Assembly (NCBI GenBank): GCA_963796055.1
Contig: CAWCKH010000001.1
Span: 285,642 to 349,641, forward strand
DNA from: an uncultured delta proteobacterium
Lineage (GTDB): Bacteria; Myxococcota; Myxococcia; Myxococcales; Myxococcaceae
Reading direction: 5' to 3'
Length of the DNA stretch: 64,000 bases
Every line of letters starts with the position of its first letter. Within the stretch, counting starts at the first letter, position 1. Below the pieces are notes generated by a model, which worked only from the letters and a program-made list of their open reading frames with translations, was not told the origin of the DNA and did not search any database. This document shows, piece after piece, positions 18,280-40,344 of this stretch. A program made the position numbers and the translations under genes.

Positions 18280-19317
18280 TCAGGGCGGGAGGGTGATCCT
18301 CCCGGGCGCGTTGCTGGTCCCGCTCTGGGTGTGGCAGCTGTTGCAGTCGCCGGTGGAGACGGCCGTCCCCATCGACCGCGTCTTCCCGTTGAAGGTCACC
18401 CGGGCGGTGATGGGGAAGGTGAGCTGGGCGGAGCCGTGGAAATTGCCGGACACGCTGCTGGCGGTGAACGTTGCCGTCACACCGTTCACGTCGGTGACCA
18501 TCACCACCGCCCCGCCGGCCGCGCTTCCGTTGCAGTCGTCCGGCTCGTGCCCGGTGGGGAAGACGGTCCCGCCGACGTTGAAGCTCGGGCCCCCCTGCTG
18601 TCTGTGGCAGACGATGCACGGGTGGCCCGGCTCCATGTCGGAGCTCCCTCGCGTCCCGCCGGTCCAGTGCGAGTTGCTGGTGCACACCGGCGCGGCGTCG
18701 AGGGGGTCCGGCGGTGGAGGAGGTCCGGCGTCCGGCGGCGGCGGTGGAACCCCACCGTCCGTGGCGCAGGTCCCCGCAGGCATGCCGGCATTGACCCAGG
18801 CCTGGAAGGCGGTGAGGTCCGCGGCGGGCACCGCGGCGTTCGGCGGCGGTGGCATCGGCGAGGTCGACGACTGCATCCGCACCACCGACCTCGCTCCATT
18901 GTTCTGCGATGGGTACCCGGGCGCGGCCGCGAGCAGCGCGGCGGGCGTGGCGAGGGACTGGGGGGCGCCACCGGCCGGAGTCGCCCCGTGGCAGCTCCAG
19001 CAATGCACGCTCAGCACGTCGTACGCCGCACAGGGGAACTCGGACGAGAGCACCACGCCGCCATCCGGTGCCGAGCCACCCGTCCCACCATCCTGACCCG
19101 GAGGGGTGCTTCCACCGTCTTGACCCGAGCCCGCGCCCGGAGCGCCGCCGCCCTGGGTGCCAGCGGGAACGCCACCGGTCGGCCCCGACCCCCCTCCGGG
19201 GGTGATGGTGCCGTCGCAGCCACCGAGCCCGGCGGCGAGCGTGACCGCGAAGAGGAGTCCCAGCGCACATCTGCTTCCGAGCGCGCGCGCACCCACCACA
19301 CCCTGTCGTCCGTGCAC
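18280..19317 (-). CDS. Triheme c-type cytochrome lipoprotein (start uncertain, possibly about 19299)
   Basis: Lipobox LGGC; CWSCH (with downstream MPP), CIVCH, CNSCH. Confidence 0.8.
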   Translation of the reverse strand: MHGRQGVVGARALGSRCALGLLFAVTLAAGLGGCDGTITPGGGSGPTGGVPAGTQGGGAPGAGSGQDGGSTPPGQDGGTGGSAPDGGVVLSSEFPCAAYDVLSVHCWSCHGATPAGGAPQSLATPAALLAAAPGYPSQNNGARSVVRMQSSTSPMPPPPNAAVPAADLTAFQAWVNAGMPAGTCATDGGVPPPPPDAGPPPPPDPLDAAPVCTSNSHWTGGTRGSSDMEPGHPCIVCHRQQGGPSFNVGGTVFPTGHEPDDCNGSAAGGAVVMVTDVNGVTATFTASSVSGNFHGSAQLTFPITARVTFNGKTRSMGTAVSTGDCNSCHTQSGTSNAPGRITLPP

Positions 19318-19497
19318 CGTCCTGCCTCCGCTCGCGCCGTTCGAGCAGACTCCCGCCCGTCCATTGCGTGCGCGGCTCGCTCTCCGTCACGGTCGACGGA
19401 CACAGCGACGGAAACGGCAGGTGCGAGGAACTGCGCTCTTCTGCGCACCTCGGCTCGCGCGAGGGCTAGTCTCGGGCTCGCCCACCAGGGAGGGCGC

Positions 19498-19851
19498 ATG
19501 CGCCATTCGGTCCGATTTCCCTTCGCCGCGACGCTATTGCTGGTCGGCTGTCAGCATGACGCCGGGGTGACGCGGCTGGCAACCGCGCCGCCGAAGCCCG
19601 CGGGCTGCCAGCTCCAGCTCTTCGCCACTGAGGCCGAGGTGAACCGCCCGTTCGAGGCAGTGTGCCTCGTCGACACGGCCTTCCTCGCCACCATGCGCCG
19701 ACCGAGCAGCGTGGCGGAGGTTCCCGAGACCGCGCGCACGCAGGCCTGTCAGTGCGGAGGCGATGCACTGATCATCACCGGGCCCGCGGATGCAGGCGCC
19801 CCCGAGGGCAATGCCTCGGTGGTGAAGGTCATCCGGTTCACCGGCCCATGA
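19498..19851 (+). CDS. Small hypothetical lipoprotein
   Basis: GGGAGG then ATG; lipobox LVGC; 'QACQCGGDALII' motif. Confidence 0.6.
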   Translation: MRHSVRFPFAATLLLVGCQHDAGVTRLATAPPKPAGCQLQLFATEAEVNRPFEAVCLVDTAFLATMRRPSSVAEVPETARTQACQCGGDALIITGPADAGAPEGNASVVKVIRFTGP

Positions 19852-19873: not shown

Positions 19874-21493
19874 CTAGCGCGCCTGAACGACCCCGTCCAG
19901 ATGCGTGGAATGTCCGGACGCATCCACCTTGATCGCCCCGCCCGAGGTGACGGAATCCGGGTGACAGCCAGCGCACTGGGTGATGCTGGTCACGCCATCG
20001 TGGTGGTGCTTGCCAGGAATCTGCGTCGGAATCCCATGGCAGCTGCCACAGGCCGCCTGTCCCGGTCCGCCGTTCCACACCGGCCTTCGATTCACGCTGG
20101 CCGACGTGTCCTGTGACAGGCGCGCGCCCGAGCCGTGGCAGTACGCGGTGCAGGTCGCAGTGGTGGGGTCGTAGGAGGCCGTGGCGCCATCCGCCACCGC
20201 CAGCGTCCCCGCCCCCGGCGGGAAGACCTCCGCGGGCGGACCGGTGTCGATGTGACCCGGGCTGTCGAGCTGCGTGGGCACGTGGTGGCACTCCCCGCAG
20301 GCCACCGGAGCGGAGACCTTGTGCAGCGCGCTCAGGTGATCGCGGTGGGCTCCCACGGTCTGGAGCGCAGGGTCCGACCGGCCGAGCAGATCCACCGGGG
20401 GCGCCGGGCTGTCGCCGCTCCCATGGCAGCCCACGCAGCTCCCGGGCGGTGCGGCCACGTCGATCTGCCCGTTGGCATGCAGCACGGAGCGTGGTTCCCC
20501 GTCGATGAAGGTGCCGTGGTGGCAGGCTTCGCAGCGCGGATACGGTGAATGCCCCGCCGGAGGATAGCCGTGACAGCTGCCGCAAGGCGCCTGATCCTGC
20601 CCCACCTTGGTCCAGACCGGATTGATCAGGTTGGCATTGGCGTCCTCGAAGGGGGCATGGCAGTAGCTGTTGGTGCAGCTGGCGGCCGTCCGGTCCCAGG
20701 AGAAGGTGCCCGCGAAGCCGCTCTTGCTGATCACCGGTGCTGGCCCGGTGAGGAGCCTGCCTCCCGACTGATAGTGGCCCTCGTCTCCGGGCTTGGTGGG
20801 GGTCTTGTGACACACCTCGCAGGAGAAGCCGGTGTGCAGCGGGCCGTCCATGACGTGCGACTGATGCGCACCCACCGTCACCAGCGAGGTGGCGGAGTTG
20901 TAGTCCAGGTTCCTGGGGGGAGCCGCGTTCGCCTCGCTGCCATGGCAGGTGTTGCACGCCATCACTCCGGAGGCGTGGCAACTCTGGCAGGCGACGCCGG
21001 CGCTGCCCCCGCTCAGGTCCTCCCCGTGGCATGCCTGGCAGCTGCTCAGGTCGTAAACGGCCTGTCGCAGCACGCGACCGTGGAACTGGTCCGTGTTTCC
21101 GGGGTCCATCCAGCCATTGATGTGCGTGGTGTAGGGCTTGGGCTTGAGGGCGCACCCGACCACCCAGGTCTGGAGCTCGGTGATCTCGGCCTGGGCGATC
21201 GCCGTATGCCCCCCGGGCAGCGTCCCCCGCGCCGCCTGGAGCAGCGGCGAGTTGTCGTCTCCGGCCCGCACGCGCGGCGTCCCGTCGGGGCGGCGGGCGA
21301 TGGCGGCCTGGTAGCTGTCCACGCGGTAGTCGGCCTCGGCCCTGGCCGCGGAGTGGCAGGACGCGCAGCGCGACTGAAGCAGCGGCCCCACGCCCTGGGC
21401 ATAGCTGTCATCGCACTGGGCCTGTCCCAGGTTCTGGGAACGCCCCTCGCACGCCGCCAGCGCCAGCAGCGCCCCGAGCAGCGCGACCCGCAT
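19874..21493 (-). CDS. Multiheme c-type cytochrome lipoprotein of CxxxxCH/CxxCH type (13 motifs)
   Basis: Lipobox LAAC; 11 CxxCH plus CTNSYCH and CTAYCH; repeated 'VGAH..H', 'P.W' and 'H..G' units. Confidence 0.88.
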   Translation of the reverse strand: MRVALLGALLALAACEGRSQNLGQAQCDDSYAQGVGPLLQSRCASCHSAARAEADYRVDSYQAAIARRPDGTPRVRAGDDNSPLLQAARGTLPGGHTAIAQAEITELQTWVVGCALKPKPYTTHINGWMDPGNTDQFHGRVLRQAVYDLSSCQACHGEDLSGGSAGVACQSCHASGVMACNTCHGSEANAAPPRNLDYNSATSLVTVGAHQSHVMDGPLHTGFSCEVCHKTPTKPGDEGHYQSGGRLLTGPAPVISKSGFAGTFSWDRTAASCTNSYCHAPFEDANANLINPVWTKVGQDQAPCGSCHGYPPAGHSPYPRCEACHHGTFIDGEPRSVLHANGQIDVAAPPGSCVGCHGSGDSPAPPVDLLGRSDPALQTVGAHRDHLSALHKVSAPVACGECHHVPTQLDSPGHIDTGPPAEVFPPGAGTLAVADGATASYDPTTATCTAYCHGSGARLSQDTSASVNRRPVWNGGPGQAACGSCHGIPTQIPGKHHHDGVTSITQCAGCHPDSVTSGGAIKVDASGHSTHLDGVVQAR

Positions 21494-21507
21494 TGGCGCA
21501 GAACCGT

Positions 21508-22569
21508 CTAGTGGTGACATGTCAGGCACATGGAGTTGCGGTTGATTTCCGAGGCGGGGTGCTTGGTCGTGAAGCCCGGTGGGTGCGGGTCGCCGCCGGG
21601 GCCGCCCACGCGATGGCAGCTCACGCAGTTGGACGCGGCACCCTGCTCATGGCAGGCGGCGCAGCTCACGATGTCCCGCCGCGCGGCCGAGCCGTGGAAG
21701 CTCGGGCTCCCGGTGGTGAGCCAGCCGGCCGGGTGCGGGTTGAGCGGGTTGTCCGAGTCGGGCGTCAGCCGCTGCTTCTTGTGGCAGTCCGAGCAGAAGC
21801 TGACCGGGTGGCACTTCTGGCAGGCTGCCTCGTTCCCCCGCGCCTCGATCGAGTGACGGGTGAGGAAGTCGCCCCAGTGGATGAAGTTTCGGTCCGGTCG
21901 GTCCGGGAGGACCTCCTCGACCCGCATCGGACGGGTCCTGGCGGCGTGGCAGTCCGCGCAGAACTGCTGCTGGTGACAGGTGTCACACGCCGCCGAGGTC
22001 GACCGGGCGATGGACGGATGGAGGCGAGTGAAGTTCCCCTGGTGGCTGAAGACGGTGGTGGGCCTGAGCGGAAAGTGGGTCAGGTCCAGGTGGCAGGCGT
22101 AGCACTGGCCGGCCTTGAACTGATCATCGTGGTTGTGGCACGCCAGACAGGTCTTCATCGGTGGGACCGGCTTGTCCAGCTGGCCGCGGGCCGGAAGCGC
22201 GAGGTGGCAGACCTCGCACTTCTCGTCCTTCTCCAGATGCTTGGCGTGGTTCATGATCAGGTACGGCGGCTTGCTGGCGTAGGTGTGCGGCTTGTCCGCG
22301 TCCAGGTGGCACATCCCGCACTTGCCCTCTTCCTTCTCCTTCTTGTGGCAGCCGAGGCAGGTCTTCTCCTTCGGGAAGGCGCCGGGTTGCCCCAGGGCGG
22401 TCTGGTCGAAGATGGTCTCGTGGCAGGTGAGACACTCCAGCCCGGCCTTCTTGTGGCCGGCATGGTTGGGATCGATCGTGAGCGGCTCGCCGGCGTTCGC
22501 GGACCAGACCCCGCCCAGAAGCAGAATGGCGACCAGCGGACCGCGCGCGCGGAATGGTCGCCGGATCAT
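21508..22569 (-). CDS. Periplasmic 13-heme cytochrome c (c3-like N-terminus; ExtA-like)
   Basis: Signal peptide ending SANA; 13 CxxCH in about 350 aa; ATGA coupling with the porin. Confidence 0.88.
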   Translation of the reverse strand: MIRRPFRARGPLVAILLLGGVWSANAGEPLTIDPNHAGHKKAGLECLTCHETIFDQTALGQPGAFPKEKTCLGCHKKEKEEGKCGMCHLDADKPHTYASKPPYLIMNHAKHLEKDEKCEVCHLALPARGQLDKPVPPMKTCLACHNHDDQFKAGQCYACHLDLTHFPLRPTTVFSHQGNFTRLHPSIARSTSAACDTCHQQQFCADCHAARTRPMRVEEVLPDRPDRNFIHWGDFLTRHSIEARGNEAACQKCHPVSFCSDCHKKQRLTPDSDNPLNPHPAGWLTTGSPSFHGSAARRDIVSCAACHEQGAASNCVSCHRVGGPGGDPHPPGFTTKHPASEINRNSMCLTCHH

Positions 22570-23849
22570 CGAGCGGTTCCCTTCTGCTGGAGCGTCGAGA
22601 AGTTGTATCCGATGCGGGCGGTGGCCGTGTACGCGGTCTGGAAGAAGGGAGTGGATCCCACCGAGCCGCTCAGCATGGCGCTCCACCCCGAGCCGATCGC
22701 CCAGGTCGCGCTGCCGGTTCCCACGATGGACTCGGTCTTGGTGTTGACCGCATCCTTGAGCAGCGTTCCCTCCACGTCGGCGCTCAACCTGATCCGCTCG
22801 GTCAAGGCGTGGGAGAACCACGCGCGCAGGTCGGTCACCCCGTTGGCCGGGACGTAGAGGAACCGCGCATTCACCCCAACGGTCGACTTGCGCGCGAGCC
22901 GGTAGGTGGCCCGGAGCTCGGCCTCGTCGCCGTGCCCGCTGTCCACCCACAGCCGCTGGTACTCGCCGTAGAGCCCGAGTCGCCGGGTTGCCTGCCAGAA
23001 CACGCCTCCTCCCACTGCGTCGCGGTTGGTGTTCGCGAACACGCTGAAGATGGAGGTCATGGGGAGGAACAGGTCCGCCTCGGAGTGCTGTCCCCGGGCG
23101 AAGACCTCGAGGCTGGGGAGGATCTGCCAGTGGACCTGGAGATCCGCGTCCGCGAAGCGGGATTGCTGCAGGCTCAGGATGCCCGAGGCGCTCGCCGAGA
23201 GGTTGGAGAGGATTGCCCAGCGTCCATCCAGCCCCAGGTCCTGCCTGGAGAGGACGCCGTCGCTCAGGATCTCGAGGAAGGAGACTCCCACCTCGCTCCC
23301 GTACGAGGGTCTCCAGAAGGCTCTCCCTCCGAAGGCGAACTCACCGACCGGATAAGTGAAGCGAGAGACCGTGGGGGCACCGGCGTAGCCCGTGACTCCG
23401 AAGCCCTTGCCGATCATGCCCGTGGCGTTCACCCCATCCAGCTGGAGGACGCGCGCCGCCCCGCCGGAAACGAGCTGCCGGCCGACGGTGAGACTGAGAT
23501 GCCGGTGGAACAGCGCCCCCTGGATGTAGAGGAGATCGATGTCGCCGGTGGTGCCGGTATAGATGGTGTTCTCCAGCGACGACACCTGTCCCCAGGCGGA
23601 GAGCTGGATGTTGAGGTCGTCCACCCCGGACACCTCGATCCCTCGCACCGAGACGCCCACCATCTCCGTGCCCCAGAAGCCGGTCCGCGTGTCGCCCGCC
23701 TTCCACTCCGGCTTGAGCCGCAGCATCGTGGTCGAGCTGGCGTCGACGACCTCGGCCGCTGCCACCGGCGTCGAGGCGGTCAGGATCAGCGCAAGGGCCG
23801 CCCACCGCGACCCAGCCCCAGCGATGTAACCGAAGATCTCCCGGTTCAT
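22566..23849 (-). CDS. Putative outer-membrane beta-barrel (porin of a porin-cytochrome conduit)
   Basis: Signal peptide, no Cys, amphipathic aromatic-rich beta strands, 'ARIGYNF' near the C-terminus, flanked by multiheme genes. Confidence 0.75.
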   Translation of the reverse strand: MNREIFGYIAGAGSRWAALALILTASTPVAAAEVVDASSTTMLRLKPEWKAGDTRTGFWGTEMVGVSVRGIEVSGVDDLNIQLSAWGQVSSLENTIYTGTTGDIDLLYIQGALFHRHLSLTVGRQLVSGGAARVLQLDGVNATGMIGKGFGVTGYAGAPTVSRFTYPVGEFAFGGRAFWRPSYGSEVGVSFLEILSDGVLSRQDLGLDGRWAILSNLSASASGILSLQQSRFADADLQVHWQILPSLEVFARGQHSEADLFLPMTSIFSVFANTNRDAVGGGVFWQATRRLGLYGEYQRLWVDSGHGDEAELRATYRLARKSTVGVNARFLYVPANGVTDLRAWFSHALTERIRLSADVEGTLLKDAVNTKTESIVGTGSATWAIGSGWSAMLSGSVGSTPFFQTAYTATARIGYNFSTLQQKGTAR

Positions 23850-26480: not shown

Positions 26481-26638
26481 CGCCGTCCCCCTGTGCTGTG
26501 TCACCGGAGGCCCTCCCGAGGCGGCGGACTGTACCCCCTCATCCTGCGGGAAGGAATCAGCCTTTCGGCCTACGCCTGCCCGGCGCGAGCCACCGACCCA
26601 CCGGCCCGCGTCGCCCTATCCCACCGGCGACAGACACC

Positions 26639-26678
26639 TGAACATTCTTGCGACTCCCCCGTCGATCCGCTAGGCGTC
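26639..26678 (+). promoter_or_regulatory. Duplicated upstream element, copy 1; sigma70-like TTGCGA-N17-TAGGCG
   Basis: Near-identical to 27465-27504; -35/-10-like spacing of exactly 17 nt. Confidence 0.55.
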
Positions 26679-26698
26679 ACGCAACTCGGAGGGCTCGC

Positions 26699-27052
26699 AT
26701 GAACCACGTCCGTCTCCTGGCCTCGATCGCAGCCGGTTCAGTTCTCCTCAGCACCACGGTGATGGCCCAGGCCGACCCCAAGAAGGTCGAGCGCGCGTGG
26801 AAGGCCAAGTGCTCGTCCTGCCACGGGGCGACGGGCAAGGCGGACACCGAGAAGGGTCAGCAGATGAAGATCGTCGACATGACCACGCCGGCGTTCCAGG
26901 CGAAGAAGGACGACGAGCTCAAGAACGCCATCCTCAACGGCGTGAAGAAGGAGAAGGGGGGCGTGAAGCAGGAGATGGACGCCTTCAAGGGCGACCTGAC
27001 GCCCGAGCAGGTCGACGCCCTCGTCGCCTACATCCGCGCGTTCAAGAAGTAG
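26699..27052 (+). CDS. Monoheme class I cytochrome c (c553/c6-like), paralog 1
   Basis: Signal peptide, CSSCH, EMDAF Met ligand motif. Confidence 0.9.
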   Translation: MNHVRLLASIAAGSVLLSTTVMAQADPKKVERAWKAKCSSCHGATGKADTEKGQQMKIVDMTTPAFQAKKDDELKNAILNGVKKEKGGVKQEMDAFKGDLTPEQVDALVAYIRAFKK

Positions 27053-27092
27053 CGGTCGGCATCCGCGCCGCCGTCAGCCCCCGGAGCCTCTC

Positions 27093-27464: not shown

Positions 27465-27504
27465 TGAACATCCTTGCGACTCGCCCGTCGATTCGCTAGG
27501 CGTC
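27465..27504 (+). promoter_or_regulatory. Duplicated upstream element, copy 2; TTGCGA-N17-TAGGCG
   Basis: TGAACATCCTTGCGACTCGCCCGTCGATTCGCTAGGCGTC, 3 mismatches to copy 1. Confidence 0.55.
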
Positions 27505-27525: not shown

Positions 27526-27870
27526 ATGAAGAACATCCGTCTCCTGGCCTCGATCGCAGCGGGTTCACTTCTCCTCAGCGCCACGGCAATGGCCCAAGCG
27601 GATCCCAAGAAGGTCGAACGTGCCTGGAAGTCCAAGTGCGCCTCCTGCCACGGCCAGACCGGCAAGGGCGACACCGACAAGGGCAAGGAGCTGAAGGTCG
27701 AGGACATGACCGCCGCCAAGTACCAGTCCAAGAAGGACGATGAGCTCAAGAAGGCCATCACCGACGGGGTCAAGGCGGACGGGAAGGAAGTCATGCCGTC
27801 CTTCAAGGACGAGCTGACCCCGGAGCAGGCCGAGGCCCTGATCAAGTACACCCGCACCTTCAAGAAGTAG
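27526..27870 (+). CDS. Monoheme class I cytochrome c, paralog 3
   Basis: Signal peptide, CASCH, VMPSF. Confidence 0.9.
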   Translation: MKNIRLLASIAAGSLLLSATAMAQADPKKVERAWKSKCASCHGQTGKGDTDKGKELKVEDMTAAKYQSKKDDELKKAITDGVKADGKEVMPSFKDELTPEQAEALIKYTRTFKK

Positions 27871-30895: not shown

Positions 30896-31350
30896 GCGGT
30901 TCCCATCGTCAGCGTGATCTGGTCCCCTTCCCGGGTGGCGACCCACTTCGCCAGAGGACGGGGCGGCGGCCCGGAGACCACCCGCCCGTTCAGATCGAAC
31001 TTGCCGTTGTGGCAGGCGCACCAGATGAGCGAGTCGCCGGGGACGAACTGCACGGTGCAGCCCTCGTGGGTGCACTTGGCGTCCAGGGCGTGAAGCTGCC
31101 CACCCGCCTCGAACACGATCACCTTCCGGGTGCCGGACCGGGCAATGACGAAGTGTGACTTGTTGAGGGTGGAAACCTCCTCCGCGCTCAGCTTCAAGGG
31201 GCCACCGGCCCCCACGTCATTCAGCGGGCGCAGGTAGCGCAGCGCCGGATAAAGGACGCTGACCGCCCAGCCCAGGACTCCGGCGCCGAGAAGCCAGTTC
31301 AGGAGGTTGCGCCGTGCCGGCTTCGCGCTCTGAGCGACAGGGGCTGTCAT
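30892..31350 (-). CDS. Rieske 2Fe-2S protein with Tat-like signal/anchor
   Basis: RRNLL; CTHEGC and CACHNG; GPPPRPL. Confidence 0.93.
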   Translation of the reverse strand: MTAPVAQSAKPARRNLLNWLLGAGVLGWAVSVLYPALRYLRPLNDVGAGGPLKLSAEEVSTLNKSHFVIARSGTRKVIVFEAGGQLHALDAKCTHEGCTVQFVPGDSLIWCACHNGKFDLNGRVVSGPPPRPLAKWVATREGDQITLTMGTA

Positions 31351-31416: not shown

Positions 31417-31432
31417 CGCACATTCCAGGCCA
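31417..31432 (-). promoter_or_regulatory. Possible sigma54 (-24/-12) promoter for the Rieske operon
   Basis: TGGCCTGGAATGTGCG has GG-N10-GC spacing, about 65 nt upstream of the start. Confidence 0.3.
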
Positions 31433-31659: not shown

Positions 31660-31675
31660 GGGTCCGGTTCTTGCT
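31660..31675 (+). promoter_or_regulatory. Possible sigma54 promoter for the second MtrC-like operon
   Basis: GGGTCCGGTTCTTGCT has GG-N10-GC with a TTGCT -12 element. Confidence 0.3.
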
Positions 31676-31797
31676 CGGGAGGGCGCCGACCCAGTCCGGG
31701 TCGTGTGCCGTACGCCTATGGTCCACCACGACGAAGCTGCTCCGACTGTTCCAGATTTCGCCTCAAGACTTCTACGCCATGACCTCGAGGGGGTCCC

Positions 31798-34700
31798 ATG
31801 AAAGCGCGCGTTTCGTTGGCGGCAGCAGCATTGACCATCGCCGCCCTCGCACTAGGCCCGGGCTGTAAGGGCGACACGGGGCCACAGGGCCCACCTGGAC
31901 CCCCCGGCGATGGAGGGGCCGGAGGGACGACCCTGATCACCATTCCGAGCAACTCGGAGACCCCCACCAGCGAGTCCACCTCGAACTGGGCTTCGCTCGA
32001 GCCCAAGGTGACCGTCGAGAGCGTCACCATCAGCAGCCCGCCGGTGGTGAAGTTCAAGGTGACCAATTCCTCAGGCGTCCCGATCACGGGCCTGGGCAAC
32101 ACCTCGAAGAGCAGCACCGCCAGCGTCGCGGGCCTGACCAACCTCGCCTTCGCCATGGCCAAGCTGGTGCCGAGCGACAACGGTTCCCCCAGCCATTGGG
32201 TCAGCTACATCGTGACGACGGTGCCGAGTCTGACCGCGGACGGCGGCGTCGGGTCAGCTGCACCCACCCGGCCCAGCACCGACAACACCGGAAGCTTGGT
32301 GGACAACGGGGACGGGACCTACACCTATACCTTCTACCGGGACATCCCCAACATCAAAACCCAGGTGGACGCGATGACCTTCACCGACCCCAACAAGAGG
32401 GAGGACCTGGGCGAACTGACCTACGAGTCGAGCAAGGTGCATCGGCTGACCATCGCGCTGTCGGGTAGCGCGCCCGGCACCGGTACCAACACCCCCACCG
32501 GCGTCCAGAACGTCCCCGGCGTGGTGCTGGAGAAGCCGGTGGAGGCCATCTACGACTTCACGCCCTCCACGGGCACGGCCACGCCCTCGGGTCGAGACAT
32601 GGTCACGACCGAGAACTGCAATACCTGTCACCAGGTCCTCGGCGGAATTCCGGGCGACAATCCCGAGGCCTCCGGTGCGGGCTTCCACGGCGGAAATCGC
32701 AACGAGGTCCGCTACTGTGTCGTCTGCCACACCGAGCAGCGCAAGTTCGGGAGGACGGACTCCACCTTCTCGAACTTGACCTTCCCGCTGCAGTCGGATG
32801 GCGGCGTCGCCTCGACGTATCGAGTCTATGACCGTGCGCTCGGCAACCTCCCGAACGAGATCCACCACATTCACGCGGGCCCGCTCCTGGCACTCAAGAC
32901 GTACAACTATGGCGGCGTGAACTTCAACGAGGTGCTCTACCCCCAGGACCTTCGAAATTGCACCAAGTGTCACAACCCTGAGAATCCTGCGACTCCACAA
33001 GCCAACAACTTCAATACAACTCCCAACCGGCTGGCCTGCGGTGGGTGCCACGACGGCATCGACTTCGCGACCGGCAAGGGCGTGACCCTGGAGGACGCTG
33101 CCAAGGGGCTCACCTCTTCCGACAAGGGCGGGGGCCTTGCCCACGTCGCTGGGCAGCTGCCCGACGACTCGCTGTGCGCGTCGTGCCACGGTCCGGGCGG
33201 CCCCTTCGACGCCGACCTCGTCCACCGGCCGGTGACACCGCCCAATGACGACAACGCGCTCGTGGCACACCCGGACGGCGGCGCGGGGAACAACCAGACG
33301 AATGCGGCCTCGATCGCCTCCAACCCGGCTCGGCTGCCAGCCGGGGCGATCGCCGTCAGCTACGACCTCAAGAGCATCTCGCTGACCGGGAGCAACAGAA
33401 ACCCGGTGGTGGTGTTCCGGCTGCTGCAGAACGGCGCCCGGAAGGACCTGAACGACGCCGGCACCTCGACAGAAATCTGGGACAACTTCATGGGGTCGCC
33501 GAGCTTCCAGTTCGTCTACGCGGTGCCGCAGGACGGGATCGACACTCCTTCCGATTTCAACGTGGCCCCCAGCGCGTATTTGAGGACGGTCTGGGCCGGC
33601 AAGGGTGGAACGCTGAGCGGTCCCGACACCAATGGCTACTACACCGCTACGCTCACCGGGATCAGCATTCCCCCGAACGCGGTCATGCTCACCGGCGGGA
33701 TCGGGTATTCGTACGGCCTCACCAGCACGCTGCCGCTGACACAGACCAACCTCGACACGTATCCGGTCTCACCCCCGACCGCGCTGAATACTGACGGCGG
33801 CGTGCTGGGCTGCACCAATCCCCCGAACTCGCAAACACCGAAGTGCGCGATGGGCGGCTTGATCGTCATTGCCCCCAGCGTCCAGAAGGTCGCGACCGGA
33901 TTCACTGGCCGGCGGGCAATCGTCGAGGACAAGCGCTGCAACGCCTGCCACCAGGAGCTCGGCACGTTCACCGAGGATGCGTTCCATGCCGGACAGCGGA
34001 ACGACGGGACGACCTGCTCGTGGTGCCACACGCCGAACAGGGCGAGCAGCGGGTGGTCGGCGGACTCCGTCTACTTCGTCCACGCCATTCACGCGGGTGC
34101 AAAGCGAACAACGGAATTCACCTGGCACGCCGAGAGTCCGACCTCGTCGTTCAAGGAGGTCGCGTACCCCGGCATCCTGAACTTCTGCGAGGGCTGCCAC
34201 ATCCCCGGCGCGTACAACTTCGCCAACTCCGACTCGGAGGCCCAGCAGCCGTTCCGGCTGTACCGGACGGTCGCGGCCGGCTCCTTCAGCGGCACGGCGG
34301 GCGATACGTACACCACCTACTCGGGCCCGACCTGCGCCACTGCGACCCAGTCGTCGCCCGCGACCGAGGTGAGCGTGCAATCGCTCGCTCCATACTTCCA
34401 GGCCACCGCGAATATGACGTCCGTGCCCAGCTATGGCATCAACCCCACCAGCTTCTACAATACCGGCTCCACGGACTCGAAGCCGTGTGCGCCAGATGTT
34501 CCAGGCAACTTGGTCACGATTCCGAGCGGTGGAACCATCCAGAAAAATCCCGATGGTACGCCAAATGCCGCTGGTACGGCTTCCATGGCTCAGAATCTCG
34601 TGAACTCCCCTGTCGCAGGGGTGTGCTTCGCGTGCCACGACTCGTCGGCCGACATGGCACACTTCGACCTCAACGGCGGTTCGATCTACAAGAAGCGCGG

Positions 34701-34806
34701 CACTGCTGATGGAGCGGTACCTGGGGCGCTGACCCAGGCCGAGACCTGTCTGATCTGCCACGGCCCCGGGAAGATCGCGGACATCGCGGAAGTGCACTCG
34801 CACTAG
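31798..34806 (+). CDS. OmcA/MtrC-family decaheme lipoprotein (1002 aa)
   Basis: Lipobox GPGC, GPP linker, 'LVDNGDGTYTYTF', 10 CxxCH in 5+5 layout, 'FHGG.R', 'RRAIVEDKRCNACH', 'ETCLICHGPG'. Confidence 0.92.
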   Translation: MKARVSLAAAALTIAALALGPGCKGDTGPQGPPGPPGDGGAGGTTLITIPSNSETPTSESTSNWASLEPKVTVESVTISSPPVVKFKVTNSSGVPITGLGNTSKSSTASVAGLTNLAFAMAKLVPSDNGSPSHWVSYIVTTVPSLTADGGVGSAAPTRPSTDNTGSLVDNGDGTYTYTFYRDIPNIKTQVDAMTFTDPNKREDLGELTYESSKVHRLTIALSGSAPGTGTNTPTGVQNVPGVVLEKPVEAIYDFTPSTGTATPSGRDMVTTENCNTCHQVLGGIPGDNPEASGAGFHGGNRNEVRYCVVCHTEQRKFGRTDSTFSNLTFPLQSDGGVASTYRVYDRALGNLPNEIHHIHAGPLLALKTYNYGGVNFNEVLYPQDLRNCTKCHNPENPATPQANNFNTTPNRLACGGCHDGIDFATGKGVTLEDAAKGLTSSDKGGGLAHVAGQLPDDSLCASCHGPGGPFDADLVHRPVTPPNDDNALVAHPDGGAGNNQTNAASIASNPARLPAGAIAVSYDLKSISLTGSNRNPVVVFRLLQNGARKDLNDAGTSTEIWDNFMGSPSFQFVYAVPQDGIDTPSDFNVAPSAYLRTVWAGKGGTLSGPDTNGYYTATLTGISIPPNAVMLTGGIGYSYGLTSTLPLTQTNLDTYPVSPPTALNTDGGVLGCTNPPNSQTPKCAMGGLIVIAPSVQKVATGFTGRRAIVEDKRCNACHQELGTFTEDAFHAGQRNDGTTCSWCHTPNRASSGWSADSVYFVHAIHAGAKRTTEFTWHAESPTSSFKEVAYPGILNFCEGCHIPGAYNFANSDSEAQQPFRLYRTVAAGSFSGTAGDTYTTYSGPTCATATQSSPATEVSVQSLAPYFQATANMTSVPSYGINPTSFYNTGSTDSKPCAPDVPGNLVTIPSGGTIQKNPDGTPNAAGTASMAQNLVNSPVAGVCFACHDSSADMAHFDLNGGSIYKKRGTADGAVPGALTQAETCLICHGPGKIADIAEVHSH

Positions 34807-34978: not shown

Positions 34979-36637
34979 ATGGAGACCCGCCTGCGAGCAC
35001 TCGAGGAGCAGGTGACCCGGCTGACCGGACGGGTCGAGCAGCTCGAGGAGAAGCTTGCGGCGCTCCCTCCGCCCGCACCGGCCTGGCCGGAGGGCGAACC
35101 TCAGCTCCACCTCCCCCCTGCCGGCGCCGAGGCGACCCGCTGGGTGACGCTCGTTGGTCGGAGCTGCATCGTGCTCGGCGGCGCCTTCTTGATCCGCGCT
35201 CTCACCGAGGGCGGAACGTTGTCCGGCGGCGTCGGTGTCGCCCTGGGACTGGCCTTCGCCGCCACCTGGGTCTTCTTTGCTCACCGCGCTGGGGCGAAGG
35301 GCGCAACGTCGAGCGCAGGGTTCCACGGGGTCACCGCCGCACTCATCGCCTACCCCTTGATCCTGGAGGCGACCACGCGGATGGGGGCGATGTCGAGCCT
35401 CGCTGCGGCCCTGGCGCTCGTCGCCTTCACCGGCCTGCTCCTGGTCGTGTCCTGGCGGGACCACCTCGGCTGGCTCGCCTGGATCGGCGTCCTGTCCTGC
35501 GTGCTCACGACCCTGGCTCTGCTGAGGGTGACCGGTGCCGGAGCGGAATTCACCGCAGTGCTCCTCGTCGTGGCGGCGGCGACCTTCTGGCTCGGCGAGC
35601 GTCCGCGGTGGGGAGGCCTCCGGTGGCTGCCGGCAGTGGTTCTCGATCTGGTCGTCCTACGCGCGGTGGTCACGTCCACGCCACCGCTCCTCGTCTACTC
35701 GGTCGCGCTCGCCGGCGCGTCCCTGGCCCTGGTGCTTTCCCGGACGGCAGGCCCCGGGCGGCCGGTGGGTGCGTTCGAGATCTTCCAGACCGTGGCCGGG
35801 CTCGGCATCGGGCTGGCCGGCGCTCTCCGAGCGTCCGCCGAGGCAGGGCAAGGTTCGGGGGCGGCGGCGGCGGCGGTCCTTGCCGCGTCCCTGCTCGCGG
35901 CCTTCGTCGCGGCAGGGATCGTTCCTCGACGAGGCAACCGCGACCAGGATTTCCTCTTCTACGCGACCCTGTCTCTCGGTCTGCTCTCCACTGCAGTGTC
36001 GCTGCTGACCTCGGGAGAGCTGCGGGGCGTGCTCTGGTCCATCCTCGCGCTCCTCACCGTGCTCCTGGGGCGCCGGAGGCAGCCCGGCTGGTTCTGGTCC
36101 GTCTCGGTGCTCCTCGCCTTTGGCGCGGTGTTCAGCACGGGATTGGGGCGTGGGGTCGACCAGGTGAGCCCGGCCAGCGTCGCGGTCCTCGTCCTGGTGA
36201 TCGTCTCGTACGTCCTGACCGTCCGGCCGCTCCCGGCCGGGGCCGCTCCGTCGACTGTGCCGAGCTGGGCATCGCCTCGCCTGCCCGCAGCGGCGCTGCT
36301 GCTGCTCGCCAGCGCCGAGGCGGCCACCCTGCTCTTGCGAGCGCTTCGCCCCTTCAGCACCGATCCGGCACGCCTCGCCACGGCCACCACGCTGGTGGCG
36401 ATCGCGATCGCGTTCGTCCTTGCACTGCTCCGGCGGCGTATGCCATGCCCCGAGCTCACGTGGATCGCGAACCTCGCGCTGGCTCTCGCGGGAGTCGAGT
36501 TGGTCGTCAGGGGTTTACCGAGTGGGAGGCCACTCTTGCTGCTCGTCTCCTTCGTCCTCTACGGAAGCGCCCTGCTTCTCATCCCACGCCTGGCTCCTCC
36601 CCGTCGTGATCCACTGTCCCCAAGCCGCCCGCACTAA
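34979..36637 (+). CDS. Large polytopic membrane protein (DUF2339-like) with N-terminal coiled coil
   Basis: N-terminal 'RLRALEEQV.RL..RVEQLE' and roughly 16-18 hydrophobic segments. Confidence 0.7.
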   Translation: METRLRALEEQVTRLTGRVEQLEEKLAALPPPAPAWPEGEPQLHLPPAGAEATRWVTLVGRSCIVLGGAFLIRALTEGGTLSGGVGVALGLAFAATWVFFAHRAGAKGATSSAGFHGVTAALIAYPLILEATTRMGAMSSLAAALALVAFTGLLLVVSWRDHLGWLAWIGVLSCVLTTLALLRVTGAGAEFTAVLLVVAAATFWLGERPRWGGLRWLPAVVLDLVVLRAVVTSTPPLLVYSVALAGASLALVLSRTAGPGRPVGAFEIFQTVAGLGIGLAGALRASAEAGQGSGAAAAAVLAASLLAAFVAAGIVPRRGNRDQDFLFYATLSLGLLSTAVSLLTSGELRGVLWSILALLTVLLGRRRQPGWFWSVSVLLAFGAVFSTGLGRGVDQVSPASVAVLVLVIVSYVLTVRPLPAGAAPSTVPSWASPRLPAAALLLLASAEAATLLLRALRPFSTDPARLATATTLVAIAIAFVLALLRRRMPCPELTWIANLALALAGVELVVRGLPSGRPLLLLVSFVLYGSALLLIPRLAPPRRDPLSPSRPH

Positions 36638-36679: not shown

Positions 36680-38101
36680 GTGAACTACATTCTCAAAGTT
36701 CTCTCGGCAGTTCGAGATTTTCTGTGGCGAGCGACGGCAAACTGGGTCTCCGCGATCGGAGTGGCTCTCGCCACACTGGCCTCGATCTCGTTTCTGGCGA
36801 TCCTTGCATTTGAGCTCGCTGGCGTCCCGATTGGAAACTATGCCGGGATCGTCAGCTATCTGATCCTCCCGGCGATCTTTCTTGTCGGGCTAGCGCTGAT
36901 CCCGATCGGGCTACGCCTGCAGCGCAAGAAGGAGCAGAAGGCGGGCCAGCCGAGGCGTTTCCCCATCCTTGACTTCAATGACCCCCGCCTGCGCTCCGTC
37001 ATCCTGCTGGTCCTCGTGCTGACCGTGGTGAATCTGATGATCGTCTCCACGGCGACGTTCAAGGGTGTCGAGGTGATGGACTCGACGCACTTCTGCGGGG
37101 GCACCTGTCACACGGTGATGACCCCCGAGTTCACCACGTACCAGAGATCGCCGCACTCGCGAGTCAAGTGTACCGAGTGCCACATCGGCTCGGGAGCCAA
37201 CTGGTTCGTGAAGTCGAAGCTCTCGGGGTCGTGGCAACTGATATCCGTGGCGTTCGACCTCTACCCGCGGCCCATTCCCACCCCGGTGAAGGACCTGCGG
37301 CCGGCCCGCGACACCTGCGAGCAGTGCCACTGGCCCACCAGGTTCGTCGGCGAGCGGCTTCGGTTCTACAACCGTTTCGCCGAAGACGAGAAGCAAACCG
37401 AGAAGAAGACGGTCCTTCTGATGAAGACCGGGGGCGGAGAGACAGGGCGCGCTCACGGCATTCACTCGCACGTCGATCCAGACCTCACCATTCGCTACCG
37501 GTCGGACAAGTCACGGCAGAAGATCTTCGACGTCGAGCTGACCCGGGCCAACGGCAAGCCGGAGGTGTACAAGCTCGACGGCGCGAAGCCTGACGGGGCC
37601 GAGCCGGGGTGGCGGGTGATGGACTGTGTGGATTGTCACAATCGCCCGACCCATGTCTACCAAATGCCCAAGGACGAGCTGGACGCCGTTCTCACATCCG
37701 GCGAGCTGGACAAATCGCTCCCCTTCATCAAACGCGAGGGGCTCAAGGCCATCCAGCAAACCTATACATCACACGCTGATGCCAAAGAGGGCATTCACAA
37801 GGCGCTGACCGAGTTCTACCGGACCAACTTTCCCGATCTACTCGAAAAACACGCGGACCGAATCGATCGCGCTGCCGATACGCTCACCCGGGTATACGCG
37901 CGAAACGTGTTTCCGGAGATGAAGGTCACCTGGGGCACCTACCCTACTTTCCTCCAGCACGAGCCCGGCTGCTTCCGTTGTCACGACAACGAGCACAAGA
38001 ACGAGCAGGGAAAGAAGATCTCCAAGAGCTGCAGCCTCTGCCACGAGGTTCTGGCGGTCGAGGAAGAGAAGCCAGAAATCCTCGAGGTGCTCCACCCGTA
38101 G
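36680..38101 (+). CDS. NapC/NirT-family inner-membrane multiheme cytochrome, ImcH-like
   Basis: 3 N-terminal TMs, 'FCGGTCH.VM.PE', 'SPHSRVKCTECHIG.GA.WFVKSKLSG', 'LRPARDTCEQCHWP', 'MDCVDCHNRPTH', 'FPEMKVTWG'; 5 CxxCH plus 1 CxxxCH. Confidence 0.85.
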   Translation: MNYILKVLSAVRDFLWRATANWVSAIGVALATLASISFLAILAFELAGVPIGNYAGIVSYLILPAIFLVGLALIPIGLRLQRKKEQKAGQPRRFPILDFNDPRLRSVILLVLVLTVVNLMIVSTATFKGVEVMDSTHFCGGTCHTVMTPEFTTYQRSPHSRVKCTECHIGSGANWFVKSKLSGSWQLISVAFDLYPRPIPTPVKDLRPARDTCEQCHWPTRFVGERLRFYNRFAEDEKQTEKKTVLLMKTGGGETGRAHGIHSHVDPDLTIRYRSDKSRQKIFDVELTRANGKPEVYKLDGAKPDGAEPGWRVMDCVDCHNRPTHVYQMPKDELDAVLTSGELDKSLPFIKREGLKAIQQTYTSHADAKEGIHKALTEFYRTNFPDLLEKHADRIDRAADTLTRVYARNVFPEMKVTWGTYPTFLQHEPGCFRCHDNEHKNEQGKKISKSCSLCHEVLAVEEEKPEILEVLHP

Positions 38102-38121
38102 CAGTCTCATCGGAGGGGAAA

Positions 38122-40344
38122 ATGAACAGGTTTCGCTTCGCTCTGGTGGTGAGACCGGGCTCGAGCGTGCTGATCGCCCTCTGGGCGTCGCTCTCGATGA
38201 CGGCCCCGGCGGCCGCGCAGGACGCTGGAACTCTGCCTGGCGCGGCCAGGACGGTGCAGCGACTGCCGTCCCCCGAGGCGAGAGCGAAGAGCGCCGCATG
38301 TACCGCCGGCTGCCATCAGGATCTGAAGGCGGTCGAGTACCCGGCACACAAGGAGCTCGCGTGCACCCAGTGCCATGCGAACGTGACCGACGGCCAGGTA
38401 AAGCACGCAAGCGCGCTGGACGAGCTCCCTCCAGAAAAGACATGCACGGGATGCCATTCGGAGGAAACACGCAAACAGACCTCGGGGCTGCACAAGGATC
38501 TGTTGTGCGAAAGCTGCCACGGGTCCGCTCACGGAGCGTTCAAGCGTTACGACAGCTCGACCTGCAAGGGGTGTCACGGCGACCAGGTGAAGGCAATCAA
38601 TGCCAGCATCCACGGCACCAGCGAGAAACAGCGGGTCCGCTGCATGGACTGTCACGGCGACCTTCACGACGTGAAGAAATCGTCGAATCCGTTAGCTCCC
38701 TCATCCAAGGTGCTGCAGGTCACGACCTGCGGCGAATGCCACAACGATGCGTACGTCCGCGCCTTCCGGGACAGCGTGCACGGCCAGGGGCTGCTCCGCT
38801 CCGGGCTCGCCGTCGCGCCGACGTGCAGCACGTGCCACGGCGCGCACGACATCGCCAAGGTCAAGAGCCCGGCCTCGAAGGTCGCGAAGGTCAACTCGGT
38901 CGAGACCTGCGGCCAGTGCCACGAGTTCATCGTCACCCGCTGGAAGGAGAGCACGCACGGACAGAAGTGGCTCGGCGACAAGGAGCCGGCGGGGGTCAAG
39001 CCCGGCGCCGAGCCCGAGACGCCCATGGCCGAGCGGCCCAAGACGTACCCGGTCTGCGTCGACTGCCACTCGGGCCACAAGACCTTCGACCCGATGGTCT
39101 ACGCCAACAACCTCAAGATGGCCGACACCTGCGGGGCCTGCCACGAGGAGGCCAGCCGTACCTACCGCGAGAGCTTCCACGGCAAAGCGACTCGGCTCGG
39201 CCAGGCCGCCGCCGCGACCTGTGCGGACTGCCACACCCCACACCACATGCTGCCCGCGACCGATCCGCAGTCGACCGTCCAGCCAGCGAACCTGGCCGCG
39301 ACCTGCGGCCGCTGCCACCCGGGCGCGAGCGGCGAGTTCCTCAAGTTCGACGTCCACGCCAACCCGGACAGCAAGGCGCGCAACGCCAAGGTGTACTGGA
39401 TCTACAAGTTCATGAGCCTGCTCCTCTTCGGGGTCATGGGCTTCTTCGCTGTGCACGCGGTCCTGTGGCTGCAGCGCGCCCTCGTCGCGGCGTGGCGCCA
39501 CGAGCTGCCCAACGGCGAGAAGCCGGGCGAGCCGTGGGTGCGCCGCTTCCGGCCGATCCACATCGGCATCCACGTCGCCATCGTGCTGACCTTCCTCACT
39601 CTCGGCGCCACCGGCCTGCCGCTCAAGTTCAGCGGCCAGGCCTGGGCCCGGCCGATCGAGAGCCTGTTCGGTGGACCGGGGGCGAACCAGCTCCTGCACC
39701 GCATTGCCGGCGTCCTGACGTTCGGCTACGCCGCGGTCTACGTCGCCTACCTGCTCTACGAGGCGCTGGTGAAGCGCACCAAGGGCCTGTTCTGGGGCTG
39801 GGAGTCGATGACGCCCCGGTGGAAGGACCTTCAGGACCTGTGGGCCAACGTCAAGTGGTTCTGCTACCGGGGCAAGCCGCCGCACCTCGACCGCTGGGCT
39901 TACTGGGAGAAGTTCGACTTCTTCGCGGTCTTCTGGGGCATCCCGATGATCGGCCTCTCGGGCCTGATGCTGTGGGCGCCGATGTGGTTCACGAAGTTCC
40001 TGCCCGGCTGGGCGCTCAACGTGGCCTATGTCATCCACAGCGACGAGGCGCTGCTCGCGACCGGCTTCATCTTCTTCTTCCACTTCTTCCACACCCACCT
40101 GCGTCCCGAGGCATTCCCGATGGACACGGTCATGTTCCTCGGCGGCATGCCGCTGTCGCGCTTCCAGCACGAGCGGCCCGACGAGTACGCGCGCGCGGTT
40201 GCGGACGGCACACTCGACAAGCTGCTCATGCCGCCGCCCAGCGAGCACGAGCGCCGGCGCGCGAACATCTTCGGCGCGGTGACGCTGGCCATCGGGGTGA
40301 TCCTTGCCTTCCTGCTCCTCGTGACCGGAATTAGCGCCCTCTGA
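38122..40344 (+). CDS. CbcL-like fusion: multiheme c domain (13 motifs) plus FdnI/HydC-like cytochrome b domain
   Basis: 12 CxxCH plus CTAGCH, followed by TM helices with 'RRF...H', 'TGLPLKF', 'HRIAG', '[13 protein letters not shown]' and '[27 protein letters not shown]'. Confidence 0.88.

Follow-up and report, generated by a model that had tools for sequence, protein, structure and literature searches.

The 64,000-nucleotide (nt) stretch of DNA analyzed here (the window), from an uncultured soil myxobacterium, contains an island of ~22 kb (18280..40344) that is rich in genes for c-type cytochromes. This raises the questions as to whether the island encodes a single apparatus for extracellular electron transfer (EET), in which direction such an apparatus would move electrons, and whether it differs from the systems already described. 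An EET reading of the island is well supported, and we think it probable that the island encodes one modular EET apparatus, serving most likely the outward respiration of insoluble or high-molecular-weight acceptors, for example Fe(III), Mn(IV), or humic substances. The evidence comes from protein families, motif counts, a barrel fold, a complex prediction, synteny, and the joint presence and absence of genes among relatives; from it we infer the direction of flow, the acceptor, surface exposure, the pairing of entry points with routes, and any role of the membrane protein G13.

Gene content of the island

The window has ~70% GC, and genes were chosen by their third-position GC and motif content. 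The island (18280-40344) has fifteen genes in four transcription units, as follows:

Unit A, minus strand: G5 (decaheme), G4 (427 residues, no heme), G3, G2, G1
18280..19317, minus: G1, triheme cytochrome, signal peptide ending LGGC, Gly/Pro-rich linker; last gene of the conduit operon
19874..21520, minus: G2, 13-heme lipoprotein, lipobox LAAC, 11 CxxCH and two atypical motifs
21508..22569, minus: G3, 353-residue periplasmic 13-heme cytochrome, Sec signal, predicted to thread G4
22566..23849, minus: G4, predicted outer-membrane beta-barrel, 22 strands, 427 residues
23900..26480, minus: G5, MtrC/OmcA-like decaheme lipoprotein; signal peptide and linker (26480 to ~26340) out of frame with the body
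Unit B, plus strand: G6 to G8, three tandem monoheme paralogues
26699..27052, plus: G6, monoheme class-I cytochrome c, Sec signal; PF13442 44.5 bits, PF00034 41.6 bits
27093..27428, plus: G7, monoheme class-I cytochrome c, G6 paralogue
27526..27870, plus: G8, monoheme class-I cytochrome c, G6 paralogue
Unit C, minus strand: G11 (Rieske), G10 (cytochrome b), G9 (9 CxxCH, C-terminal anchor)
27922..29493, minus: G9, nonaheme cytochrome c with one C-terminal transmembrane (TM) anchor (487-508), c-type subunit of the Rieske/cytochrome b complex
29490..30895, minus: G10, cytochrome b, with b6 and subunit IV fused and two extra C-terminal helices; frameshifted
30892..31350, minus: G11, Rieske [2Fe-2S] subunit, N-terminal TM anchor
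Unit D, plus strand: G12 (decaheme, 1002 residues), G13, G14, G15
31798..34806, plus: G12, OmcA/MtrC-family decaheme, 1002 residues, Cys-ended signal peptide followed by six Gly-X-Y triplets
34979..36637, plus: G13, polytopic membrane protein, N-terminal helix and ~18 TM helices, divergent DUF2339
36680..38101, plus: G14, ImcH-like inner-membrane cytochrome, three TM segments, CX3CH at residue 139, 5 CxxCH
38122..40344, plus: G15, CbcL/MtoC/MtrH-like, 13 c-heme motifs and a C-terminal FdnI/HydC-type membrane domain
40360..40446, minus: tRNA-Leu(caa), right boundary, 3' end toward the island; in the same place in the related loci L009 and L026

The first-pass annotation of this DNA had counted eleven c-type cytochrome genes with 3+13+13+10+1+1+1+9+10+6+13 = 80 heme motifs, a tally that we reproduce gene for gene, with 76 typical CxxCH motifs and four atypical ones. 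CxxCH motifs number 3 in G1, 13 in G3, 10 in G5, one each in G6, G7, and G8, 9 in G9, and 10 in G12, and the genes with mixed motifs are G2 (11 CxxCH and two Cx3-4CH), G14 (5 and one CX3CH), and G15 (12 and one CX3CH). The beta-barrel (G4, by its predicted fold), the Rieske protein (G11; PF00355, 47.3 bits), and the cytochrome b (G10; PF00033, 164.7 bits) are likewise confirmed, and every envelope compartment is represented among the island proteins, as had been proposed. The fifteenth gene, encoding the DUF2339-like polytopic membrane protein G13, had been omitted.

Candidate components from the quinone pool to the cell surface

In the apparatus that we propose, menaquinol would be oxidized at the inner membrane by G14, by G15, or by the G11-G10 complex with its anchored nonaheme subunit G9. 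Electrons would travel through the periplasm via the monoheme cytochromes G6 to G8 and the protruding N-terminal third of G3, would pass the outer membrane through the 13 hemes of G3 sheathed in the 22-strand barrel of G4, and at the surface would be handed over to the lipoprotein cytochromes G2, G5, and G12 (G5 and G12 with short collagen-like linkers) and to G1.

A porin-cytochrome conduit (Pcc) at this locus is supported, as G4, G3, and G2 show Pcc gene order and features, and the predicted complex of G4 and G3 passes its benchmark. The G4 and G3 genes overlap by 4 nt (22566-22569). The AF2 model of G4, built with 42 aligned homologues, is a 22-strand barrel (mean pLDDT, 81.8), and in Foldseek it retrieves outer-membrane barrels only (usher pores, AlgE, and Occ porins, with TM-scores of ~0.4-0.5), MtrB being absent among the matches listed. 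The complex of G4 (residues 33-427) and G3 (residues 27-353) was predicted with an ipSAE of 0.85 (0.84, 0.85, and 0.87 in the runs), a mark that 116 of 157 solved complexes attained, as did 2 of 215 mismatched pairs; the best of three controls scored 0.00. The runs have at least 85% of contacts in common, with partner pLDDT values of 78-80, and in the predicted complex residues ~151-351 of G3 contact barrel residues all round the lumen, with the first third of G3 protruding. The prediction thus supports, and does not demonstrate, binding of G3 inside the G4 barrel. Neither protein matches Mtr families by sequence. G3 has 687 homologues of ~350 residues, mostly labelled Myxococcota, and all 13 of its heme motifs are invariant across 42 aligned sequences, while the 97 homologues of G4 are all unnamed metagenomic proteins. 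G2, which matches TIGR01904 (CxxxxCH/CxxCH domain) with 71 bits (cut-off, 27), is a candidate outer-face cytochrome of the conduit. G1, with its 3 CxxCH, matches PF00034 (24.3 bits), and its homologues come after G2 in two related loci (L001 and L009).

The presence of OmcA/MtrC-type terminal decahemes, claimed earlier, holds for G12 and not to the same standard for G5. G12 scores 419.2 bits against TIGR03507 (cut-off, 209.3), spanning model positions 2-672 of 672, and has Pfam matches to PF22113 (MtrC/MtrF domain II/IV, 167 bits) and PF22112 (OmcA-like N-terminal, 28 bits) and distant PDB sequence matches to MtrF (5.6e-14) and to MtrC of the OmcA/MtrC family. G5 matches PF22113 (98.3 bits; cut-off, 30) and falls below the curated TIGR03507 cut-off (137.6 versus 209.3 bits; E, 5e-40); judged by these scores, it is clearly related to the OmcA/MtrC family, as a distant member of its kin. 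PDB sequence searches gave no match for G5 or G9. In both decahemes the CxxCH motifs form two pentaheme groups (residues 274-460 and 714-984 of G12, and 149-361 and 559-770 of G5, with five in each), and the signal peptides end in Cys (GPGC in G12, GLGC in G5), in neither case a canonical lipobox.

Right behind this lipid-anchor Cys, the surface decahemes of the window and of loci L001, L003, L004, L008, and L009 carry 6-11 collagen-like Gly-X-Y triplets, which in the window lie at 26400-26430 (in the G5 leader frame) and 31870-31925 (G12), and which could form a stalk or a trimerizing linker. We know of no Gly-X-Y linker in Shewanella MtrC or OmcA. Between the two pentaheme halves of G12 there is also a CX10C cysteine pair (residues ~640-655; 33700-33740), which recalls the domain III disulfide that reportedly gates flavin binding in Shewanella MtrC/OmcA.

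Unit C has the gene order Rieske, cytochrome b, c-type subunit, as in a bc/b6f-type complex. G11 contains the motifs CTHEGC and CACH, and scores 72.6 bits against the b6f-type Rieske model, below its cut-off; G10 matches PF00032 (38.7 bits) in addition to PF00033, and its scores against the b6 and ExtP models (203.8 and 190.5 bits) are both below cut-off. The G10 translation shows PEWY, the Qo motif, and two His pairs with the spacing typical of cytochrome b. Absent from the Rieske motif CACHNGKF are the Ser and Tyr that give bc1-type proteins a higher potential, which would fit a menaquinol-based, lower-potential complex. The G9 start overlaps the stop of the frame carrying the conserved tail of G10. 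The monoheme cytochromes G6 to G8 are tandem paralogues (DNA 79-81% alike), and their family is multicopy beside the island modules.

The ImcH-type and CbcL-type modules of the earlier annotation are also upheld, ImcH by signature. ImcH homologues are described as having three N-terminal TM segments, an atypical CX3CH motif beside them, and 5-9 CX2CH motifs (PMC6295460; statements credited to this and the other papers cited by PMC number draw on excerpts of those papers). G14 has this signature, with hydrophobic segments at 21-52, 53-81, and 102-130, CGGTCH at 139, and CxxCH at 164, 213, 316, 431, and 451; it matches PF03264 (31.9 bits; cut-off, 24.1) and, below the cut-off, the NrfH model (E, 4e-14). 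CbcL, MtoC, and MtrH proteins have a periplasmic part with 3-23 CX2CH motifs fused to a formate-dehydrogenase cytochrome b-like membrane domain of six, rarely five or four, TM segments with conserved His ligands (PMC6295460). G15 shows this architecture: its 12 CxxCH and one CX3CH all lie before residue 400, five segments exceed a strict hydropathy threshold (426-451, 476-503, 528-546, 599-619, and 713-740), a sixth candidate (~640-662) lies under that threshold, and the membrane-domain residues H445, H484, H526, H639, H654, H657, and H659 are invariant in 30 sequences. It has more than 1100 homologues, many of which bear the name 'cytochrome b subunit of formate dehydrogenase' and contain PF01292; G15 itself has no PF01292 match at an E value of 0.01, and a PDB sequence search returned NrfB at 3.7e-4 only.

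G13 belongs to a very large, uncharacterized family (1378 representative clusters). Although 34 of 50 aligned relatives match PF10101 (DUF2339), G13 itself does not at an E value of 0.01; its atlas feature score is 0.96 to clusters in which 31-46% of members have PF10101. The AF2 model (pLDDT, 91.3) is an all-helical membrane fold, for which Foldseek found nothing at an E value of 0.001 or better and VIA-align returned designed helical repeats and toroids only (Z up to 16.6), matches that are uninformative for helical bundles. A G13 homologue adjoins G9 or G12 in 6 of 11 close loci.

Assembly, genomic context, and distribution

G5 and G10 are each frameshifted as assembled, and comparison with relatives suggests that both single-base shifts are probably consensus (assembly) errors. 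The body of G5 has no start bearing a signal peptide, and the lipoprotein signal (Met 26480) and Gly-X-Y linker lie in another frame; signal and linker are in frame in five of six relatives, and out of frame in the window and in L006. A contig of sequencing run X3 (depth, 3.07) omits one base at 26336, giving a G5 of 859 residues from the signal Met with 10 CxxCH. The annotated frame of G10 ends in a tail that matches no relative, the shift being at the C7 run 29767-29773, and the two-helix tail that lies in the third frame in the window continues in frame from cytochrome b in all six of six relatives; a contig of run X2 (depth, 3.5) carries one more C after 29766, giving a G10 of 468 residues with the conserved tail. 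These shifts suggest consensus errors of the homopolymer type, and other genes of the same assembly may be affected too.

The island order does not appear to be an assembly chimera, as the order including both flanks recurs in an independent genome (locus L009 of genome G058), where it runs from the tetratricopeptide repeat (TPR) gene and tRNA-Leu as far as the unknown gene on the other side of G1. Four public soil-metagenome runs have contigs, mostly at least 99% alike, in 29, 27, 27, and 12 of 30 bins; these runs may include the source sample, and therefore are not independent support. Contig joints with skips of 2-16 kb were considered as possible rearrangements and rejected in favor of cross-matches of heme-motif repeats or other organisms, their sides being only 20-24 letters long.

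The window ends contig C1 of a 5.53-Mb genome in 7 contigs that is 98.5% complete. A CxxCH scan of all six frames of the genome, with no composition filter, gave 31 open reading frames (ORFs) with at least two motifs, and 73 of their 139 CxxCH lie in the island. All six of the six ORFs with at least six motifs are inside it, and the maximum outside is 5. The ORF with 5 CxxCH (C4:1719101-1720804) was itself rejected as a wrong-frame artefact, overlapping nosZ and cytochrome b in another frame. Smaller multiheme proteins outside the island are the pentaheme subunit of an alternative complex III (ACIII) beside a caa3-type oxidase, and NrfA with NrfH; nosZ adjoins a second cytochrome b and a glutamate-synthase-like iron-sulfur flavoprotein. 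The respiratory loci outside the island are:

C4:1716543-1724107: nosZ/cytochrome b
C4:1926001-1945000: ACIII/caa3-type oxidase
C4:980907-983151: NrfA/NrfH

Judged by gene content, this is the profile of a facultative organism, and because aerobic and nitrogen-oxide respiration would be served by their own complexes elsewhere, a role of the island as a separate EET apparatus is favored.

With G9 as the query, 11 close loci (79-87% identity) were retrieved, together with one Tectomicrobia and one Acidobacteriota locus. The close loci are from uncultured metagenome-assembled genomes (MAGs) labelled Myxococcaceae or delta proteobacterium, with one Thermoanaerobaculaceae, and in them the modules stay together with their order shuffled. 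When 151 genomes (51 genera) were sampled evenly from the same family, the genes proved to be distributed as follows:

G4: 34 of 151 genomes, 13 of 51 genera
G12: 39 of 151 genomes, 18 of 51 genera
G9: 12 of 151 genomes, 3 of 51 genera
Monoheme family (G8): 114 of 151 genomes, 43 of 51 genera (the tally includes genome G049, flagged as unpublished)

G4 is present in all 12 of the 12 genomes with G9, versus 22 of 139 without it, and G12 is present in 10 of the 12 genomes with G9 and in 22 of the 34 with G4. Within the genus, which has 10 other genomes in the sample, six have G4, G12, and G8, five of these also having G9, and the other four (completeness, 95, 89, 75, and 68%) have none of G4, G12, G8, and G9.

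Clusters of MtrC-like, barrel, and multiheme genes also occur in larger genomes of the family, many of them without G9. For example, the closed 9.0-Mb genome G009 has a locus (L027, 2710-11989) with a barrel 25% identical to G4, G3- and G2-like cytochromes, a 582-residue ORF with 23 CxxCH, and a 997-residue MtrC-like decaheme. The Tectomicrobia locus (L012, 2269-18945 of a MAG) encodes an OmcA/MtrC decaheme (310 bits versus the cut-off of 209), a DmsE/MtrA-family decaheme (209 versus 192), a c554-like tetraheme, an octaheme, a Rieske protein, a b6-like cytochrome b, a G9-like nonaheme (36% identity), a CbcL-like 11-heme protein, an NrfH-like 11-heme protein, and a 700-residue protein of no family, which may be an MtrB-like barrel. 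By the families present, the inner-membrane trio is thus joined to an Mtr-type outer-membrane conduit in this Tectomicrobia MAG.

The island had been described as bounded by tRNA-Leu, which is the case at its right end (40360-40446) and not at its left end, where there is no tRNA or tRNA-derived repeat. A search of the whole window for hallmarks of genomic islands found neither an integrase nor the 3' part of tRNA-Leu as a direct repeat. At the third codon position, the GC of island genes (0.81-0.95) overlaps with that of flanking genes (0.81-0.96, a range that leaves out the row at 42440-43400), and the lower overall GC of the island (0.672 versus 0.708) lies in codon positions 1 and 2; recent foreign origin is therefore not indicated. 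In genome G110, the genes after tRNA-Leu are a lipoprotein gene and pgi, behind which the contig ends, an arrangement suggestive of a variable site at tRNA-Leu, with no excision scar.

The upstream flank encodes an extracytoplasmic function (ECF) sigma factor and unknown proteins, and the downstream flank a TPR protein, a response-regulator diguanylate cyclase, miaA, hisS, and psd. Next to G1, there is a gene (16831-18165, minus) for an unknown 444-residue protein, which has a signal peptide, a middle part rich in Pro and Ala, and a C-terminal GSF as often found in outer-membrane barrels; it adjoins G1 also in L009 (G058) and may belong to the island. The ECF sigma gene (16254-16844, minus) is found two genes past G1, and farther upstream of the island is a gene for a VIT-family iron transporter (5600-6955, minus). 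The contig ends at a DDE transposase gene (62476-63987, minus), which could account for the break in assembly. A 49-nt block that is 88% conserved precedes both G6 and G8 and holds a motif that looks like an ECF-sigma promoter:

26639..26663, plus: ECF-sigma-type promoter-like motif TGAAC-N16-CGTC, 36 nt before G6
27465..27489, plus: second copy of the promoter-like motif, 37 nt before G8

The exact motif is found 34-50 nt before monoheme genes in 7 of 23 upstream regions of relatives. Its count in the window is not significant (4 versus 2.09 expected, with 13 of 100 shuffles reaching 4), and we keep it only as a lead, for its conserved position.

Relation to known systems and alternative readings

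The island had been put forward as an undescribed system, partly on the premise that EET parts are otherwise scattered across the genome. The premise does not hold, as there are clustered precedents: the extHIJKLMNOPQS cluster of Geobacter sulfurreducens unites a porin (porin-like ExtI), cytochromes, a Rieske protein, and a cytochrome b, the role of the Rieske/cytochrome b equivalents being described there as uncharacterized (PMC5877670); Rhodoferax has two cymA copies, mtrH, and mtrABC in one cluster (PMC6295460); and some pcc clusters include a CbcL-like gene (PMC4245776). A 2022 preprint, moreover, places Myxococcota MAGs at the top of a list of novel multiheme clusters, with MtrC, ExtABC, CbcL, and Cyc2. 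What stands is the combination, which we did not find described in a full-text search, although the part families and their clustering are already known. That search, which did not extend to supplementary tables that could hold such loci, found no MtrC-family gene inside a Pcc-type operon, no nonaheme Rieske/cytochrome b complex tied to such conduits, and no genome with all large cytochromes in one gain-or-loss block. Going by sequence families, then, every part of the island belongs to or resembles a known family and the combination is new.

The Pcc of Geobacter (ombB-omaB-omcB) has the order barrel, periplasmic multiheme, lipoprotein multiheme, with atypical heme motifs typical of the outer cytochromes (PMC4245776); in the island conduit such motifs are found only in G2. 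Anaeromyxobacter Pcc periplasmic cytochromes have 338-344 residues and 12-14 hemes, similar to the 353 residues and 13 hemes of G3, and the two-gene pcc of Anaeromyxobacter is reported in the excerpts without an outer cytochrome, whereas the island has G2 (PMC4245776). The island also differs from Pcc in that an MtrC/OmcA-family decaheme gene (G5) precedes the barrel gene. With Shewanella MtrCAB/OmcA the island shares a family member, G12, and a distant relative, G5, and the predicted cytochrome-in-barrel is like that of MtrA in MtrB. However, the window has no DmsE/MtrA protein (TIGR03508; best scores, 68.1 bits for G15 and 35.8 for G9 versus 192.2, with none for G3), and an NCBIfam search of it found no MtrB/PioB-family protein; G4 has 22 predicted strands whereas Shewanella MtrB has 26, and the island decahemes differ in the Gly-X-Y linkers behind their lipid-anchor Cys. 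In relation to the Geobacter ext cluster, G10 is related to ExtP (below the cut-off, as noted above), but the island lacks the rhodanese and selenocysteine cytochrome, its cytochrome b is fused with subunit IV and followed by the anchored nonaheme subunit, and it adds ImcH-like, CbcL-like, and MtrC/OmcA-type genes. G15 has 13 c-heme motifs whereas CbcL has 9. ImcH and CbcL types occur in one organism as in most Geobacter (PMC6295460), but the island genes for G14 and G15 are adjacent and next to outer-membrane parts. Desulfuromonas acetexigens and other Desulfobacterota have MtrC-family and Pcc-type parts, which have no phylogenetic relation to one another, in one organism together with ImcH/CbcL homologues; their Mtr, Omc, and Pcc pathways are separate clusters with genuine MtrAB (PMC12133095). 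In the Myxococcota island, by contrast, the MtrC-type gene shares a transcription unit with the Pcc-type barrel and cytochrome, with the Rieske/cytochrome b genes alongside.

Several observations weigh against a single outward EET apparatus. G4 has no Pfam or NCBIfam family and is likened to OmbB by gene order and barrel fold, not by a sequence match, and the pass of the G3-G4 complex is one of model confidence only, which may lean on the solved MtrAB-type architecture. G5 falls short of the TIGR03507 cut-off, and both it and G10 are frameshifted as assembled, the evidence for error being one contig of depth ~3 per site, possibly from the window's own sample. Rieske/cytochrome b complexes and class-I monoheme cytochromes are respiratory parts of a generic kind. 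G043 and G095, two near-complete genomes from a sister genus, have the bc module and the barrel on different contigs and gave no G12 match. The relatives are all uncultured MAGs, possibly with the exception of one closed genome, and the co-occurrence counts are descriptions whose support is inflated by the kinship of the genomes. No RNA runs carrying 24000-33999 were found, which we list here although it is silent either way. Lastly, electrons might flow the other way, as MtoC occurs in Fe(II) oxidizers and excerpts of PMC6295460 give no sequence feature separating the directions.

The last point bears on the description of the island as a quinol-to-surface chain, which presumed a direction that its CbcL-type component does not fix, MtoC being a CbcL homologue. 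The same hardware could carry electrons inward, with extracellular Fe(II), Mn(II), or reduced humics or a partner cell as the donor, downhill via the monoheme cytochromes to heme-copper oxidases or N2O reductase, and uphill into the quinone pool through the CbcL-like protein or the Rieske/cytochrome b complex, working backward. Three class-I monoheme cytochromes are encoded in the island, and in Sideroxydans this role is filled by the monoheme MtoD; models of reverse electron flow use a Rieske/cytochrome b complex; and the genome offers sinks in three heme-copper oxidases and nosZ. MtoC/MtrH are also found in mto clusters of Fe(II) oxidizers, with no feature in the excerpts to tell directions apart (PMC6295460). 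We nonetheless consider inward flow unlikely and favor outward flow, because the only process in which ImcH has been implicated to date is quinol oxidation (PMC6295460), and because MtrC/OmcA-type surface decahemes and Pcc outer cytochromes are known from reducers, whereas the clusters of iron oxidizers often have no outer cytochrome (PMC4245776). A different possibility is that the island is a neighborhood and not one system, in which the Rieske/cytochrome b/nonaheme complex and the monoheme cytochromes would serve ordinary periplasmic respiration to cbb3/caa3 oxidases, NosZ, or NrfA, and an independent porin-cytochrome/MtrC module and two stand-alone quinol oxidases merely adjoin them. Such an arrangement is consistent with the four transcription units on both strands, the rearrangement of modules among the 11 close loci, their separation onto different contigs in G043 and G095, the wide occurrence of the monoheme family (114/151), and the MtrC-like and barrel clusters without G9 in many larger genomes. 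It seems quite unlikely to us, however, given that the barrel accompanies G9 in 12/12 genomes but is found in 22/139 without G9, that G4, G12, G9, and G8 are gained or lost together within the genus, and that the same inner-membrane trio stands beside an Mtr-type conduit in another phylum; in addition, ACIII and caa3 already give a quinol-to-oxidase route, and the Geobacter ext cluster likewise couples a Rieske/cytochrome b pair with a porin and cytochromes (PMC5877670).

We regard as very unlikely a third alternative, that the conduit serves soluble or colloidal oxyanions or other nonmineral acceptors (selenite, tellurite, iodate, or dimethyl sulfoxide-like) at or near the outer membrane. It draws on the score of G10 on the model for ExtP, from the Geobacter selenite/tellurite reduction operon (190.5 bits, below the cut-off of 290), and on the pairing in that operon of the porin-like ExtI and cytochromes with a Rieske/cytochrome b pair (PMC5877670). 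But the generic b6 model gives G10 a higher score (203.8 bits), Pfam and NCBIfam searches of the island found no gene for a terminal reductase, such as a molybdoenzyme or a rhodanese, and the two MtrC/OmcA-type decahemes point to surface electron transfer. Within the outward EET apparatus that we prefer, it is possible, though doubtful, that G11-G10-G9 is a dedicated Q-cycle-capable EET entry, a new class beside CymA, ImcH, CbcL, and CbcBA, in which the anchored nonaheme G9 would act as a wire. It would plug into interchangeable conduits (of the Pcc type with MtrC-type caps in these Myxococcota, and of the Mtr type in one Tectomicrobia genome) and, with the ImcH-like and CbcL-like proteins, would make up a three-gear, potential-matched EET system. 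If true, extra proton-motive energy would be conserved on high-potential extracellular acceptors, and the three-gear system would operate in a genome without other large multiheme cytochromes.

Model metal reducers have dozens of redundant multiheme cytochromes, and their electron routes are hard to dissect as a consequence. Here, apparently the whole set of large cytochromes is in one 22-kb block that is gained or lost among sister species, a natural minimal system whose block character would allow the entire route to be transplanted or deleted. That a Rieske/cytochrome b complex is linked in two phyla with outer-membrane conduits bears, if the link is real, on the energy conserved from extracellular acceptors. 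The MtrC-like and barrel clusters in larger genomes of the family, one of them closed, may be testable in culture, and the island would add an uncultured, small-genome lineage of soil Myxococcaceae to those capable of mineral respiration.

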